A stretch of 7,493 nt of DNA from a virus (Duplodnaviria > Heunggongvirae > Uroviricota > Caudoviricetes): IMG/VR virus record IMGVR_UViG_3300029875_000118, one strand, 5' to 3'. How positions within the stretch are numbered: position 1 is the stretch's first letter; every line of letters begins with the position of its first letter. This document shows, one piece after another, positions 1-6,200 of the stretch. Below the pieces are notes generated by a model that saw only the letters and a program-made list of their open reading frames with translations, had not been told where the DNA came from and searched no databases. The position numbers and the translations under genes are program-made.

Positions 1-500
1 ATTTCTCCTACTTCCTCGGCAATCAATCCGTAGAATCCCCAGTCACGCCTGTCATTTTCGCATTGCGACCTGTACCACACAGGGCGCATCTTGAAAATGA
101 GATCGGCGTGCTCTGAATCTATCGTCTCTACTGAATGTTTATAGCGAATAGACGATGTTGACCGCAGTACAGACGAAATTGCGGGGTCAGGATTAAGATA
201 AAGATTTGCCGCCGCTGTAGTCGTGGCCAAATTCCATAAATAAAACGCTTCACGACCTGTCAGTGGATAAAAATCTCCCCCATAACGACCGCTTTCCAGA
301 TCATTCACTTCTACTTTGTTTTTGAGCTTATTATCCACTTCAGTTTTTGTGTATCTGGTACTGATATCCTGCTTTGCACTGGTCATATCAGTCTGAAGTG
401 TTGATACTTTTACGTTAATTGAGGAAATATCTTCCTTAGCTTTACTGACATCTCCCTTTAGCGTGGTGATGTCTCCTGGAATTACTGTCGATGTAGCCAT
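1..500 (-). CDS. Tail-fibre-like protein, N-terminal 166 codons (C-terminus beyond the left edge): coiled-coil-like N-terminus followed by a peptidase-S74-like (intramolecular chaperone) motif
   Basis: ATG at 498-500 with SD GGGAGA 4 nt upstream and the preceding gene's TAA stop 9 nt upstream. The frame is open through position 1: MATSTVIPGDITTLKGDVSKAKEDISSINVKVSTLQTDMTSAKQDISTRYTKTEVDNKLKNKVEVNDL...STSSIRYKHSVETIDSEHADLIFKMRPVWYRSQCENDRRDWGFYGLIAEEVGE. The segment 'S-x-R-x-K ... L-x-x-RPV-x-Y ... G(F/L)IA(E/Q)EV' resembles the start of the auto-cleaving chaperone domain found at the C-terminus of phage tail spikes and fibres. The ORF track misses it because it runs off the edge. Confidence 0.6.
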   Translation of the reverse strand, partial: MATSTVIPGDITTLKGDVSKAKEDISSINVKVSTLQTDMTSAKQDISTRYTKTEVDNKLKNKVEVNDLESGRYGGDFYPLTGREAFYLWNLATTTAAANLYLNPDPAISSVLRSTSSIRYKHSVETIDSEHADLIFKMRPVWYRSQCENDRRDWGFYGLIAEEVGE

Positions 501-509
501 TTGTCTCCC

Positions 510-791
510 TTACATCCAGCCACGAATTTGATGATCAATAGCAATTGCGTATTCATCGAATATTGACGGTATTTTGACATCATTAATGATGCGTACGTTT
601 ACAAAATATCCGTCCTCCTTAACACATACAGGATCACCACCTTCTGTTAGTTCGCCTGTTTCTTTGTATACGTCACCTATTACATCAATGAGAACATCGT
701 TCTGTATCATCTCGTCATCATAATAACCAATGCTATCCATAAAGGCCGAAAAGTCTGCCTTGTCTGTGAATTTGATAATTAAATCTCGCAT
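510..791 (-). CDS. Hypothetical small acidic protein (93 aa), translationally coupled to the fibre gene; possibly a fibre chaperone or accessory protein
   Basis: ORF MRDLIIKFTDKADFSAFMDSIGYYDDEMIQ...HQIRGWM. Its ATG (789-791) shares one base with the fibre TAA (791-793) in a TAATG arrangement. A strong SD, GGGAGAGG, lies 6 nt upstream inside the fibre 3' end. About 20 Asp/Glu against 8 Lys/Arg. I do not recognise the family. Confidence 0.65.
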   Translation of the reverse strand: MRDLIIKFTDKADFSAFMDSIGYYDDEMIQNDVLIDVIGDVYKETGELTEGGDPVCVKEDGYFVNVRIINDVKIPSIFDEYAIAIDHQIRGWM

Positions 792-3230
792 TATATTACC
801 TCTCCCATTTGCGCATCGGTTAATTCTTTATGCCATATACGAAAATTACGAATGTGACCAAAAAGATGACGTAGGCCGCTATTAGTCTGCCCCCCAATCC
901 TGAAGAAATAACCAGATTTGACACCGACATGATCCGTGGTTTTAGGAGTTCCATGCTGGGCATTGCTAACGAAATGCACATTACCAGATTCATTTAAAAC
1001 AAATCCAAGAACAGATTTTTGTTCAAATAATACTGGCGATACCGCGGCTACTGTACTACCGTTTTTATTGTACATTGTAACACCAGGAAATAATGTTGAA
1101 CTGATAGCAACACTTATATATTGACCCGGAGTTGTACTCCCACCACTGGTATCAAAAACTCGTGGTGCTGCATTTGGCGTTTCGTTCCAGTTTGTATGAA
1201 CTTCAGCTAGAAATGTTAAAGGTGGTGTACCGATATTGTTATTTGTTGGTATATTCACCATATCACTGGCTCTTGTGACTGGCGTTGCCTCAGTAATAAT
1301 AAACGAAGAAGCGCACGAACCGCCTTCGACCTGAGGAGTTGCAACATAAATATAATCATCTGCACCAGTGCCACCCCCTTTTGGTGGTGCATATTGCACC
1401 ATCGCACCGATCATATTTTCTGTATCAAGTGCCTTAATTGTTGCCTCAAAGAAAATCCATTTGCTTGCTTCATTTTTAACAGCCCTTGCAGTAATACGAC
1501 TTGCAGCGCCGCCAGTTTTATCAATCGATAAATCTGTCATATTTAAGTAAGCATCACCCAGGAATTTGTAGGTAGAGCCATCATATTCTTCAAATCGTAA
1601 TCGACATCTTAAATTTGGAGTCCCACTTTGTACCCTGCATGAGATAGTTACATACTTTTCATCGCCGGTAACATCATATCCTTTGCTTCCAGATACTGTG
1701 ACAATAGAAATGGCTGAGGTTTGCCCCACCATTTCTGGTTTTAATGTGAATTTTGCGTACTGGAAACCAAAATCATCTACACCTGATGTATTTAAAATCA
1801 TATTTGATGACTTGTTCCACTTTGATGGATTTGTGCTGTTTATTAACAGGTTTGTACGCTGCCCTTCAATCAGCAATCCATACTTTTCAAAGCGAGGTTC
1901 ATCGATTGCAGCCTCTGTCAGCACACCAGATTTATTAATATAGGTTGCTTTCGATGCGCGTTTAAACTTTACAATCTTGTCGCCAGGCATTGTTATTTCA
2001 TCGTCGCCAATAACAATCTTTTTATATGATGGCGAAAAGCCCGTAATCATATCCAGTGAATCGTTAAATGGTATCCACACATCAGGAAGCGGCTGTAATA
2101 CATATTTATACGGTTCTGCTGCCTGGCTTGCGTACTCTCTGGCTGCGTCTTCACTTGCTTTAGCTGCTGTCTGGCTTGCAGCGGATGCTTTCGCCGAGTT
2201 CGCCGCCGCAGTCTCGCTCGCCTTTGCGTTGGTTTCACTGGTTTTTGCAGCTTTTTGACTATTTGCTGATGCAGTGGCAGAAGCAGCCGCCGCACTTGCA
2301 GAACCAGCTGCGGCACTCTCGCTTTCAGCTGCTGCATCCTGACTACTTTTCGCCGCAGTTTCACTGGCTTTAGCGTTCGTTTCGCTGGTCTTCGCTGCCG
2401 TCTGACTGGACTTTGCGTTAGTTTCGCTAGTCTTCGCTGCTTTCTGGCTGTTAGCCGCAGCAGTTGCTGATCCAGCTGCTGAAGTCGCAGAACCGGCTGC
2501 CGCGCTCTCGCTTTCGGCTGCTGCATTCTGGCTATTNNNNNNNNNNNNNNNNNNNNNNNNNNNNNNNNNNNNNNNNNNNNNNNNNNNNNNNNNNNNNNNN
2601 NGCCGTCTGGCTGGACTTTGCGTTGGTTTCGCTCGTCTTTGCTGCTGTCTCGCTATTTTTCGCGTTGGTTTCGCTCGTCTTTGCTGCTGTCTCGCTATTT
2701 TTCGCGTTGGTTTCTGATTTTTTGGCTGCTGTCGCGGAGTTTGCCGATGCAGTCTGTGAGGCCGCTGCCGCCTGTGCGCTGTTACCTGCATTCGTCTCTG
2801 ACGTTTTCGCCGCGTTCTTCGATGATGCCGCTGCAGTTTCGGATTTCTTTGCCGCCGCTGCGCTCTGAGAGGCGGCTTCGGCGTTGCGTGCCGCTTCTTC
2901 CACCATTGCCTCAAAACGACGCAATGCCTCCGGCATGACATCCTCTTCCGTCATGGCACCGAGAAAATCATTCAGCGTACCTGGTCTGGAACCTTCATAG
3001 ACGGTAATGGTCCCGGCATGTGAAGGCGGAAAACCTTCAACCAGCAGGATAACGCTGTACTGGCCATACTCAACATCCATACTGTAACGCCCGGCTTCAT
3101 CCGGATTTTCTGAGGCCACCGTGTTTACCACAACCGTGGTGCTGTTACGTTTTGCTTTGAGCTGAATGGTGCAGTTCTGTATCGGTTTTCCTGCACCGTC
3201 TTTCAGCACACCTGAAATCTGTACTGCCAT
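791..3230 (-). CDS. stf: Side tail fibre protein (lambda Stf-like N-terminus and repeat shaft, non-lambda distal domain); interrupted by an N-run with an apparent frame change
   Basis: The N-terminal frame reads (MN)MAVQISGVLKDGAGKPIQNCTIQLKAKRNSTTVVVNTVASENPDEAGRYSMDVEYGQYSVILLVEGFPPSHAGTITVYEG..., which matches the lambda Stf N-terminus as I recall it. GGAG lies 5 nt upstream of the ATG at 3228-3230; the ORF-track start at 3236 sits inside that spacer. Ala/Ser/Thr/Glu-rich repeats (KTSETNAKSSQTAAKTSETNAK...) run into the N-run at 2537-2601. The same repeat protein resumes in a different frame after the gap and continues to a TAA at 791-793, ending ...GHIRNFRIWHKELTDAQMGEVI. The two ORF-track pieces (2532..3236 and 791..2941) are therefore one gene. 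The Arg-rich N-terminal part of the 716-aa ORF (2602..2941) is an off-frame artefact. Confidence 0.8.
2270..2536. repeat. Imperfect long-period direct repeat (about 189 bp, about 63 codons) in the fibre shaft-coding region
   Basis: The segment beginning gcagaaccagctgcggcactctcgctttcagctgctgcatcctgact (from 2298) recurs with a few mismatches from 2487 (gcagaaccggctgccgcgctctcgctttcggctgctgcattctggct). The protein shows the matching repeat ...AAAESESAAAGSA...NSQKAAKTSETNAK... Confidence 0.8.
2537..2601. other. Run of 65 N (assembly gap or masked bases) inside the repeat region of the fibre gene
   Basis: Directly visible. The true coding frame differs on the two sides of the run. Confidence 0.99.
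2620..2703. repeat. Perfect 42-bp tandem duplication (two copies) inside the fibre shaft-coding region
   Basis: 2620-2661 and 2662-2703 are identical (gcgttggtttcgctcgtctttgctgctgtctcgctatttttc), encoding a 14-aa unit of the TSETNAKNSETAAK type. Degenerate copies flank it. Confidence 0.9.
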
Positions 3231-3240
3231 ATTCACTCCA

Positions 3241-3269
3241 CAAATAAAAAAGGCACCATTTCTGGTGCC
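3241..3269 (-). terminator. Rho-independent terminator-like hairpin between J and the side tail fibre gene
   Basis: On the minus strand: GGCACCA-GAAA-TGGTGCC (7-bp GC-rich stem, GNRA-type tetraloop) followed immediately by TTTTTTATTTG. It sits 20 nt after the J stop and directly upstream of the fibre RBS (GGAG) and start. It is probably leaky, since the fibre gene has no room for its own promoter. Confidence 0.55.
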
Positions 3270-3288
3270 CGAATTTGGGTTTTAAAAT

Positions 3289-6200
3289 TCAACTGATACG
3301 GATACCGGCTGTTGATTTCTTCATCACGACAACAAGAAGGTCGCTGATACTGGTCGTTGGCGTCCAGTTATTAGCACCATATGAAGAAACATTGAAAGTC
3401 AGGGTGACATGACCGTGTCCGGCAGGCATATCAATGACGGATGAAAATACCCTGCTGACATCCGTCGCGGGTTGCTGAAAGATTTCCTGTCCGTTCTTCA
3501 GCACCTGCAGCTTACAGGTTGAATACCAGTATGACTGTTGGTTGTTGCTGTTGAAGTTTTCATGCTTACCACCGCGAAACAGAACGGGTGGGATTACTAT
3601 CTGACGGTCAAAAGCCTGGTCATCGTACACAGTGACCGTTATTGTACCGCTGGCATAACTGCCATTTCTCGGAAAGGCTTTTCCCACCGTTTTGACAATA
3701 TCACCTTCAATCTGGTTGGCAGACAGTTTTCCCAGAATCCGACAGTTCTGGTTAATCGTGACATTGTTGAGCGTCCCGGAGTTCGCATTCACGTTACCGC
3801 TGATATCGGCATTTTTCGCCGTCAGCCGCCCGTCCGGTGTCAGGGAAAATACCGGAGGATTGCCGCCGCTGGTAATGGTGGGAGCCGTCAGATACTTCAG
3901 GAACACTTCGTTCATGAATATCTGGTTGCCCTGCGCCACAAACATCGGTGTTTCATTCCCGTTTGCCGGGTCAATAAACGCGATACGATTGGCGGCAACC
4001 AGAAACTGGCTCAGTTTGCCTTCCTCTGTATCCTCCATGCTGAGGCCAAGCCCCGCGACATAATGCTTACCGTCTTCGGTCTGCTCAATTTTGACGCCCC
4101 ACATGGCATTCCATTTATCGTTGGCGTCTTTCCACTCTTTCGAAAACTCATCCAGTCTGCTGGCGTTATCCTCCGTCAGGTCGACTTTTTCCAGCAGCTC
4201 TTTACCGAGATGGGATTCGGTTATCTGGCCTTTGAAAAAATCCAGGTAACCTTCCGCATCATCGCTCGCCCGACCGACGGCTTCCACGAATGCTGATTTG
4301 CCAACGGTGTTCACACTGCGAACGTAAAAATAATAATCATGGCCAGGCTTGATATTGATACTGGCGGCTATCCAGTACAGCGCCGTGCCAAGATAACGCG
4401 CGCTGGTTTCAACCTGCCTGATATCGGTAATCCGCTTTTCCGAGAACCAGAACTCAAACTGTACCGTCGGGTCATAAACCGCAAGATGCGGCGTGGCGGT
4501 TATCTGAAAATAGCCCGGCGTCAGCTCAATCCGCGATGGCGCTGCCGGTGCGGCAATCCGGAACGATACCGACGCCGGATCCCCCTGCTGTCCCCACGCA
4601 TTTACCGCCCGGACTGTCAGCCTGTAGTTCCCCAGCGCCAGTTGCGTGAAGCGGTATGTGGTTTCCGTCGTCCTGGCCGTGCTGACCAGTCGCTCACTGC
4701 CATCGTCCGCTGCCACGGTCAGGCGAAGCAGGAAGCTCACGCCCTTCACCACCTTCGGCGTGTCCCAGCGCGCCAGCACCTGATATTCCCCGCTGTCAGC
4801 GGTGACTTCTGCGGTCAGGTGCTGCACCGCTGGCGGCGTGACACCGTTCACCGTTCCGCTCTGGTCGCCGTCAAAGTGCGCCCCGTTATCCACGATGGCT
4901 TCTTTCTCCGGTACATGCTGCACGGCAGTGATGGCATACGTGCCGTCGTCGTTCTCACGGATACTCACACAGCGGAACAGGCGCTGGCGCAGCGTCGGCA
5001 GCTTCAGCCCCCACACGCTGTACTCGGCAACGCCGTCAGGAACCCGGCTCACTTTCACCTTCACGCCGTCGGTGACGGACTGGACCTCCACGCTGACCGG
5101 ATTCCCCTGCCCGTCAACCAGGCTTATCAGCGTGGTGCCGGAGGATGGCAGCGTGATTTCACGGTCGAGCGTCAGCGTCCGGGTCTGGCGGTTCACCGCC
5201 AGCACGCGCCCGCCGATGCTGATCCCCGCATAGTCATCATCACAGATTTCAATAACATCGCCCGGTACATGGCGAAGCCCTTCGGCACCCACGCTGAAGT
5301 CCACGGTCTGCGTTTCCAGCAGCTCCGTTTTAATCAGCCACAGCCCGGCGCGGTGTGCCTGCCCCCGGCTGGTACAGCCAAAGGCATCCATTTTCGTGAC
5401 GTTACGACCGTAACGGCGAATGGCCTGCGTATCCTCCACAAGCTCTGTCGCCGTCTCCCAGCCGTTATTCGGGTCAATCCAGTTCACCTCAACGGCATTA
5501 TGGCGGTCCTTCAGGGCGCTGAAGCTGTAGCGGAACGGCGCGCCATCATCCGGCATCACCACATTACTGCGGTTATAGGTCCACACCTTATCCGACGGTC
5601 GGTCCTGCACGAACGTCAGCGTCTGCCCGTTCCATACCGGCATACAGCGCATTGCCGAGCAGAAATCACTGAGAACATCCCACGCCTTACGCTGTGTGGT
5701 CAGGTAGGCATTACAGGAAATGCACGGCTCCGTGCCACCAAAACCGTCCGGCACCGACTGGTCGCAATACTGGCCGATGACATACAGCGCCCATTTGTCC
5801 ACATCCGCCGCACCAAGACGTTTCCCCATGCCGTAGCGCGGATGGGTCAGCATATCCCACAGACACCAGGCCATGTTGTTGCTGTATGCTGGCTTAAACG
5901 TTCCGTCCCAGATACCGCTGTATTGCCGCGTCTGCGGGTTATAGTTCGACGGCACCTGCAGAATGCGCCCGCGAAGATGATAATTACGGCTCACCTGCTG
6001 ACTGCCGAACTGTTCCGAGTCCACCTGCACGCCGACCAGTGCCGTGTTCGGGTAGCACTGTTTCACATCNNNNNNNNNNNNNNNNNNNNNNNNNNTGTTC
6101 TGCAGCTGGTCTGTGGTGCTGTCCGGCGTCATCCTGCGCATCCGGATATTAAACGGGCGCGGCGGCAGGTTACCCACCACCACCGAGGCCAGATACTGCG

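Follow-up and report, generated by a model that had tools for sequence, protein, structure and literature searches.

The analysed window, a stretch of 7,493 nucleotides, carries the tail-operon genes K, I and J in this order, followed by stf, a gene of mosaic build that encodes the side (lateral) tail fibre of a lambdoid prophage. J and I were confirmed by Pfam and are both intact here, and K is open over its visible part. The stf gene is encoded on the minus strand at 791..3230; according to the ORF list and the sequence, it starts with the ATG at 3230-3228 and ends with the TAA at 793-791. The same two sources contain no lom gene between J and stf in the window. The start codon of the next gene, orf93 (510..791, minus strand), overlaps the stop codon of stf within the sequence TAATG, and a third gene at 1..500 on the minus strand is cut by the window end. 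The plus-strand ORFs beneath stf are short (at most 93 amino acids), and no support was obtained for any of them. Promoter-like and terminator-like sites occur in the window at counts at or below chance, and no Rfam family was found in it.

The sequence-only reading had treated the gene as one mosaic fibre. The mosaic build stands, but stf is not readable as a single open frame in this window: a run of 65 N within the repeat shaft (2537..2601) interrupts the gene and sets its two halves out of frame, the flanking in-frame codon starts being 67 nt apart. A second mask, located inside J, is frame-preserving. Contigs identical or near-identical to the window were found by an exact-protein look-up of orf93. 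Two of these, L026 and L027, whose flanks are 99.8-100% identical, have 49 nt where the window has the 65-N mask, and in L026 (99.8-99.9% identical) stf is intact with 807 codons.

The lambda-like collar and shaft

The first 131 residues of the fibre (2838..3230, minus strand) form a collar or attachment domain of the lambda Stf type. They match the phage_tail_N family PF08400 almost from end to end (positions 1-131 of the 134 in the model; E 7.8e-69; 230 bits, cut-off 26.6), and residues 1-208 are 65% identical to lambda orf-401 in BLASTP. The domain is followed by an Ala/Ser/Thr-rich heptad-repeat shaft (2111..2837, minus strand; GC 0.56), which gives repeated BLASTP matches to residues ~114-398 of lambda Stf. 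Tandemly repeated units of 21 and 42 nt, corresponding to 7 and 14 amino acids, occur in the shaft and are perfect at 2620-2714, and the number of shaft repeats accounts for the varying protein length among relatives (731, 794 and 807 amino acids). The lambda Stf-like N-terminus and shaft proposed from the letters alone are thereby borne out.

In the side fibre of Ur-lambda, which is composed of a collar, a linker and a coiled coil, residues 1-91 form a dodecameric collar at the gpV/gpM junction (PMC12617516). The shaft encoded here probably forms a trimeric coiled coil; from the Ur-lambda fibre we infer that collar and shaft would both be trimeric. The collar domain would attach the fibre to the tail directly above the tip. 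The gene shares its position after J, the PF08400 collar and the Ala/Ser/Thr-rich coiled-coil shaft with lambda stf. However, the hinge, the gp37-like distal rod and the OmpC-binding tip of the lambda protein are absent, and no tfa gene follows.

The junction and the two-domain head

The change from lambda-like to other sequence is abrupt. At ~2095-2137 the GC content drops from 0.56 to 0.40 and the similarity to lambda stops. The N-terminal domain (2840-3230) and the shaft (2131-2839) have GC contents of 0.532 and 0.556, respectively, and those of the distal segments 1246-2130 and 794-1245 and of the next gene are 0.406, 0.400 and 0.372. This agrees with the AT-rich shift that had been noticed near 2050-2130. 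The peptide quoted for the transition, EYASQAAEPYKYVLQPLPDVWIPFNDSLDMITGF, is encoded at ~2036-2140 on the minus strand, and the second quoted peptide, SGLRHLFGHIRNFRIWHKELTDAQMGEVI, is likewise present on this strand and terminates at the TAA at 791-793. The exchangeable head starts with a conserved junction motif, QPLPDVWIPFNDSLDMITGF (2036..2095, minus strand), which was delimited by homology breakpoints and by its conservation in relatives. Here, homology to lambda ends and homology to the fibres of T1-like and T5-like phages begins; nucleotide homology starts at 2137 with JLBYU10, at 2095 with VSe12 and at 2093 with Lambda_2E9. Residues P7, P9, D10, W12 and P14 of the motif are nearly invariant among 60 relatives. 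A second homology break is located at ~1142-1149, between the two domains D1 and D2 described below. As had been suspected, the distal part is unlike the gp37-like end of the lambda fibre: lambda orf-314 has no BLASTP match anywhere in the last ~440 residues. Instead, the distal segment is shared by lambda-, T1-, T5- and rV5-like phages.

The AlphaFold model of the distal part is all-beta and has a pLDDT of 91.6. Together with the profile matches, it suggests that this part apparently consists of a short linker and two tandem ConA-like sandwiches. The first domain, D1 (1241..1978, minus strand), is predicted to fold into a ConA-like beta-sandwich; it is of the 'phage head spike fiber' type and matches NCBIfam NF048003 above its cut-off (61.9 bits against 36; model 1-181 of 182, window 1268-1873). 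Its edge strands are conserved and its body is hypervariable. The second domain, D2 (794..1264, minus strand), is Laminin_G_3- or pentraxin-like, has a predicted two-sheet jelly-roll beta-sandwich fold and ends in the RHLFGHIRNFRIWHKELTDAQ strand motif. The last 152 residues match PF13385 from model position 5 to position 149 (of 151) with 22.7-23 bits (E ~1e-4), which is below the Pfam threshold of 27.6; among the 60 relatives, 28 match this family with E <= 1e-3, the best at 1.9e-11. When the D2 profile was compared with PDB sequences, all of the weak matches (E 0.018-1.5, none individually significant) fell into the LamG/pentraxin group. A fold search with the two-domain model as query likewise returned lectin-type neighbours. 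The C-terminal LamG-like motif had been assigned to a single distal domain; the LamG assignment is supported by the match over nearly the whole PF13385 model, its recurrence in relatives and the confident structure model, but the larger D1 precedes this domain. This additional lectin-like domain, related to a gene transfer agent (GTA) head-spike fibre, had escaped the sequence-only reading, and the architecture is common and catalogued.

Conservation is unevenly distributed over the head. Islands at residues 1-100, 261-320 and 401-439 alternate with variable bodies at residues 101-260 and 321-400. D1 has a phmmer match to the fibre protein Rcc01080 of the gene transfer agent RcGTA (E 1.8e-5), which covers the N- and C-terminal framework strands. 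This fibre was considered as a structural template for D1, being its sole PDB sequence match, and was rejected: the fibre is a monomer and the PDB entry resolves residues 2-10 only (PMC7296036), so that it lends experimental support to neither the fold nor the oligomeric state of D1.

The downstream genes

orf93 encodes an acidic protein of 93 amino acids, for which neither a fold match nor an adhesin-like feature was found. It is located directly downstream of the head across phage families and is always adjacent to it. The Tfa family has no match in the downstream ORFs (Pfam, NCBIfam), and Pfam is blank for the ORF next to stf; in E. coli relatives, only a C-terminal remnant of tfa is present, farther downstream. 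Thus, the suggestion that the fibre may not use a lambda Tfa-type chaperone agrees with the gene content, as a different small-protein family takes the place next to the fibre gene. The product of the third gene is a small fibre protein that contains coiled coil and a Peptidase_S74 intramolecular-chaperone domain (PF13884). The partial copy in the window scores 21.5 bits, and the full-length copy of Escherichia phage IdasGreatGrand (96% identical) scores 26 bits, above the gathering score of 22. In relatives, the product has 234 amino acids, and PGAP names it 'tail fiber domain-containing protein'; it matches PHROG 3299, which corresponds to its C-terminal part, and PHROG 37852.

Lambdoid prophages and the T1-like phage JLBYU10 carry the genes for the fibre, orf93 and the S74 protein together. 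Lambda_2E9 and the rV5-like phages have kept the head and orf93 and lack the S74 gene, and in T5-like VSe12 another second fibre gene occupies the place of the S74 gene. Across relatives, the identity of orf93 tracks the conserved framework of the head and not its variable parts (r 0.87, a descriptive correlation only, since the pairs lack phylogenetic independence). A parallel change of orf93 and the variable bodies was looked for but not observed: the D1 body of VSe12 is 91% identical and its orf93 35%, and the bodies of contig L010 are 31% identical and its orf93 81%. We regard orf93 as a candidate assembly factor and as a partner that is conserved alongside the lectin-like head. We further put forward the tentative idea that the head and orf93, often together with the S74-processed mini-fibre, may form a self-contained host-range cassette, in which orf93 might represent a new Tfa-independent class of assembly factor or a structural cap that recognises the conserved ConA-like framework of the head in lambda-, T1-, T5- and rV5-like phages.

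Function of the head and comparison with other fibres

On balance, the locus probably encodes a lambdoid mosaic side fibre with a lectin-like two-domain head, which would bind a surface polysaccharide and which would be Tfa-free. At the PLPDVWIPF junction, an AT-rich, horizontally mobile cassette would have replaced the T4-gp37-like rod and tip of the lambda fibre. The head would most likely act as a non-enzymatic lectin for a surface polysaccharide, either O-antigen or capsule, with the variable bodies of D1 and D2 setting the specificity. It would provide the reversible first contact, after which J would engage the terminal receptor, and orf93 and the S74 small fibre protein would probably help assembly or add a branch. 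Glycan binding is suggested by the predicted fold and by homology to the capsule-binding GTA fibre. For the lateral fibres of siphoviruses of this kind, O-antigen is regarded as the facultative receptor that is bound first (PMC8594841, PMC11990801). The literature search yielded neither binding nor adsorption data on this head from any coliphage and nothing relevant on side or lateral tail fibres with LamG, Laminin_G_3 or ConA-like domains; a paper on a Cronobacter T1-like fibre and a tail-spike paper were considered as precedents and set aside, as they concern other fibre types.

The RcGTA protein, also termed GhsB (Rcc01080; PDB 6TB9 and related entries), contains the homologue of D1 and, as an appendage, binds capsular polysaccharide (PMC7296036, PMC10218006). 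In contrast to the fibre described here, GhsB is located at capsid pentons with one chain per spike, has 325 amino acids and has no LamG domain after the D1 homologue. It plugs into the head-spike base of the capsid via an N-terminal Leu-Gly repeat (PMC7296036); a repeat of this type is absent from stf, whose N-terminus is the Stf collar domain.

Counterparts of the head are found on the lateral fibres of T1-like Warwickvirus JLBYU10, T5-like VSe12 and the rV5-like phages ime and EmilHeitz (bas49_0026), which share the junction motif, the D1-D2 head and the adjoining orf93. These fibres differ in their adaptors and shafts, which are T5 pb1-like, T1-like or those of a 1478-aa rV5 fibre. JLBYU10 and VSe12 retain 86-91% identity in the variable body of D1; in D2, identity over the variable body is only 19-28%. 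For a fibre of EmilHeitz, a 'lectin-like head' was described by low-resolution cryo-EM (PMC12143355); bas49_0026 carries the head described here and presumably corresponds to 'RBP_10' of this phage. The predicted fold is further shared with the jelly rolls of the ConA-like lectin/glucanase superfamily (laminin G, pentraxins, CBM40 and clostridial-toxin lectin-like domains), and the C-terminal strand motif G-x-I-x-x-[FL]-R-[IV]-W-...-L-[ST]-x-x-Q aligns with pentraxins and with an S-layer LamG domain. However, identity to these proteins is only 8-18%, and the setting here is the tip of a phage fibre. [quoted passage not shown]

It is also conceivable that the head serves mainly as a docking platform and that the true receptor binder is the attached S74-processed small fibre or orf93, resulting in a branched fibre such as that documented for LtfA and LtfB of T5-like DT57C (PMC10713586). 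In addition to this precedent, the grouping of the three genes in lambdoid prophages and JLBYU10, the different second fibre gene of VSe12 and the covariation of orf93 with the head framework are in line with such an arrangement. However, the bodies of the head are hypervariable, as expected for a host-facing surface, and S74 cleavage would leave a small fibre of ~115 residues, mainly coiled coil. Moreover, Lambda_2E9 and the rV5-like phages manage without the S74 gene, and orf93, at 93 amino acids, shows neither an adhesin-like feature nor a fold match, and we regard this arrangement as unlikely. Also improbable is an enzymatic head, in which D1 would be a glycanase or lyase of the ConA fold that cleaves O-antigen or capsule as part of a depolymerase fibre. 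The conserved strands of D1 contain the invariant charged or polar residues R73, E82, N87, Q260, E262 and R280; the charged ones could form an active site, with the acidic ones as the catalytic pair, instead of belonging to the framework. It is very unlikely that stf is a dead remnant in a decaying prophage, frameshifted like that of laboratory lambda and yielding no fibre: the gene segments on either side of the mask are in different frames, the frame-preserving mask in J suggests that masks preserve length and truncated copies exist in other genomes, but the near-identical contigs have 49 nt at this position and an intact gene in L026, J, I and the visible part of K are open, and the mask sits in a perfect tandem-repeat array in which assembly and masking errors are likely.

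Side fibres determine which surface sugars are grasped first and therefore shape host range; for this reason, they are deliberately swapped in engineered phages and delivery particles. The window can be seen as an example of a temperate lambda-like phage that borrowed a putative receptor-binding head from the pool of virulent T1-, T5- and rV5-like phages, and the short conserved junction motif could be a practical fusion point. No published receptor was found for the head, nor a function assigned to the 93-aa protein that accompanies it, which provides a modest but real experimental opening.

The fibre type itself is common, already catalogued and not new. Its two halves match positions 1-209 and 213-793 of PHROG 1419, a tail protein family of 793 positions (E 5e-124 and 3e-283, respectively). 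The exact stf architecture is found in 96 of 5,426 complete E. coli genomes, and some E. coli genomes have truncated copies fused to unrelated prophage genes. The fibre of IdasGreatGrand (XNS38299) shows 99% amino acid identity in the distal 439 residues, with 97% DNA identity over the gene downstream of the mask; this protein and E. coli WP_354142978 agree with the fibre of the window end to end in architecture and also in the downstream genes, and only the number of shaft repeats differs. At 50% identity, the head falls into about 2,300 clusters; it is borne on varied adaptors (phage_tail_N, Phage_tail_fib, Tail_spike_N, Phage_fiber_2 and collagen). PGAP lists the relatives as 'prophage tail fiber N-terminal domain-containing protein' or 'phage head spike fiber domain-containing protein'.

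A mosaic fibre with a lectin-like head

The side tail fibre gene stf lies on the minus strand (3230 to 791), after K, I and J in a lambdoid tail operon. Residues 1-131 of its product match the prophage tail fibre N-terminal domain PF08400 (E 7.8e-69), residues 1-208 share 65% identity with lambda orf-401, the N-terminal half of Stf, and the lambda shaft gives many staggered matches to the Ala/Ser/Thr-rich stretch. This shaft consists of tandem repeats of 21 and 42 nt, i.e., units of 7 and 14 residues, which is the pattern expected for a coiled coil; the repeat number varies among relatives, with fibres of 731, 794 and 807 amino acids. Perfect 42-nt (14-residue) tandem repeats are located at 2620-2714, adjoining a masked run of N. 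The last approximately 440 residues show no match to lambda orf-314, the T4 gp37-like part, and the GC content, which is 0.53-0.56 across the N-terminal domain and the shaft, falls to 0.40-0.41 between about 2130 and the stf stop and to 0.37 in the next gene. Thus, the mosaic is real, and the lambda-like part breaks off at the AT-rich turn near 2130 described in the sequence-only reading, whose quoted peptides were also found in their places.

This reading had further recognized a LamG-like motif at the C-terminus and proposed HMM searches and structure prediction for the distal part, the results of which support it. The "phage head spike fiber" domain NF048003 of NCBIfam was detected at 1268-1873 (61.9 bits, cut-off 36), and Pfam Laminin_G_3 spans nearly its whole model on the last 152 residues, with 23 bits, which is below the gathering score of 27.6; it is matched by 28 of 60 relatives (down to 26% identity; best E 1.9e-11). 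The sole PDB sequence match of the distal part is the RcGTA head spike fibre Rcc01080 (E 1.8e-5), which matches the first domain at the framework strands of both its ends; since only residues 2-10 are resolved, this entry gives no fold. For the last 439 residues (the head), AlphaFold2 gave a confident, all-beta model from a 60-sequence alignment (mean pLDDT 91.6, pTM 0.88), and in Foldseek tandem laminin-G and neurexin domains as well as Pa193/E217 proteins align over 385-444 columns, spanning both domains. A profile of the second domain alone matched only LamG/pentraxin chains among PDB sequences, weakly (E 0.018-1.5) and through the terminal motif. These results support a predicted architecture of a short linker and two tandem lectin-like sandwiches.

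Spread and shuffling of the head

Phage lineages sharing at least part of the distal segment, a search for which had also been proposed earlier, include T1-like JLBYU10, T5-like VSe12, Lambda_2E9 and Escherichia phage IdasGreatGrand. DNA similarity to the JLBYU10 and VSe12 fibre genes (81%) covers only about 1142-2137, the linker and first domain, and that to Lambda_2E9 is restricted to 1851-2093; the LamG domain has close matches only in IdasGreatGrand, E. coli prophages and the near-identical contigs L026-L029. Among 60 relatives, the head is conserved at residues 1-100, 261-320 and 401-439 and variable in the bodies at 101-260 and 321-400; the junction motif PLPDVWIPF hardly varies, and the same head is carried by N-terminal adaptors as different as phage_tail_N, Phage_tail_fib, Tail_spike_N, Phage_fiber_2 and collagen. 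This is how a receptor-binding module usually looks when it is exchanged at conserved linkers, and the variable surfaces presumably face the host.

The whole protein is matched by PHROG 1419, and PGAP names it "prophage tail fiber N-terminal domain-containing protein" or "phage head spike fiber domain-containing protein". At least 80% of 1-3300 is present in 96 of 5,426 complete E. coli genomes, and the head occurs in 220 phage records, more than 2,500 clusters at 90% identity, 2,345 representatives at 50% identity and other Enterobacterales, with distant relatives, some of them partial matches, in Aeromonas, a Solemya gill symbiont and a Marinicaulis genome. The fibre family is common and already catalogued, and so of low novelty.

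Genes downstream of the fibre

IdasGreatGrand, whose copy of the fibre is 99% identical across the distal 439 residues, carries the same genes downstream. The first, orf93 (510-791, minus strand), encodes 93 amino acids and has a start codon overlapping the stop codon of stf. It falls into PHROG 1361, a family of unknown function, and neither Pfam nor NCBIfam gives a match. Homologues occur in 181 phage records and lie directly 3' of the fibre gene in all cross-checked ones (lambda-like, T1-like, T5-like and rV5-like phages), and also in 10 of 16 genome loci bearing a head relative, including every Enterobacterales locus with a near-complete head, even at 26-34% fibre identity. Its divergence tracks the conserved head framework (r 0.87), not the variable bodies, which would fit a factor recognizing this framework; shared ancestry could explain it equally.

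The next gene (1-500, minus strand, truncated by the window end) encodes a coiled coil and a Peptidase_S74 intramolecular-chaperone domain. In IdasGreatGrand the gene is complete, and its product, 96% identical, reaches 26 bits for this domain (gathering score 22); relatives have a "tail fiber domain-containing" protein of 234 amino acids, and in JLBYU10 the S74 protein is split in two. Self-cleavage would leave only about 115 residues, and the protein could branch from the side fibre or cap it. No Tfa-type gene was found after stf, in agreement with the earlier suggestion that the fibre may not use a chaperone of this lambda type. In E. coli relatives, tfa is reduced to a C-terminal remnant beyond the cassette, which thus seems to have displaced the former distal part of stf along with most of tfa. 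In the lambda-like phage Lambda_2E9, the manganese/iron transporter operon sitABCD (4677-8126 of that record) directly follows the fibre cassette, apparently as cargo (a moron) inserted at the same hot spot.

Proposed role of the head

In Ur-lambda, Stf residues 1-91 form a twelve-copy collar at the gpV/gpM junction, followed by a flexible linker and a trimeric coiled coil (PMC12617516); by analogy, the N-terminal domains would form a collar, the shaft would be trimeric, and each chain would end in the two-domain lectin-like head. The RcGTA head fibre, the one homologue with a tested function, binds capsular polysaccharide (PMC7296036, PMC10218006), and O-antigen is held to be the facultative first receptor of the lateral fibres of T1-, T5- and Dhillonvirus-type siphoviruses (PMC8594841, PMC11990801). 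A "lectin-like head" was reported on a fibre of rV5-like EmilHeitz (PMC12143355), presumably the product of bas49_0026, on which this phage carries the head. Together, these precedents point to a head that most probably attaches reversibly to a surface glycan before J engages its terminal receptor. Both the observation and the interpretation of the sequence-only reading are sound.

It is rather unlikely that the head is instead a platform on which the S74 mini-fibre or orf93 docks, so that the fibre would branch like that of DT57C (PMC10713586). A glycan-cutting enzyme is likewise unlikely; the invariant residues E82 and E262 are suggestive of one, but the nearest folds are binders. A frameshifted dead stf is quite improbable, too. 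With 67 nt separating in-frame codon starts across a 65-N run at 2537-2601 within the shaft, the two halves do not share a frame in the window, and a 26-N run in J (6070-6095) keeps the frame, but contigs with identical or near-identical flanks have 49 nt at the place of the 65-N run, in frame.
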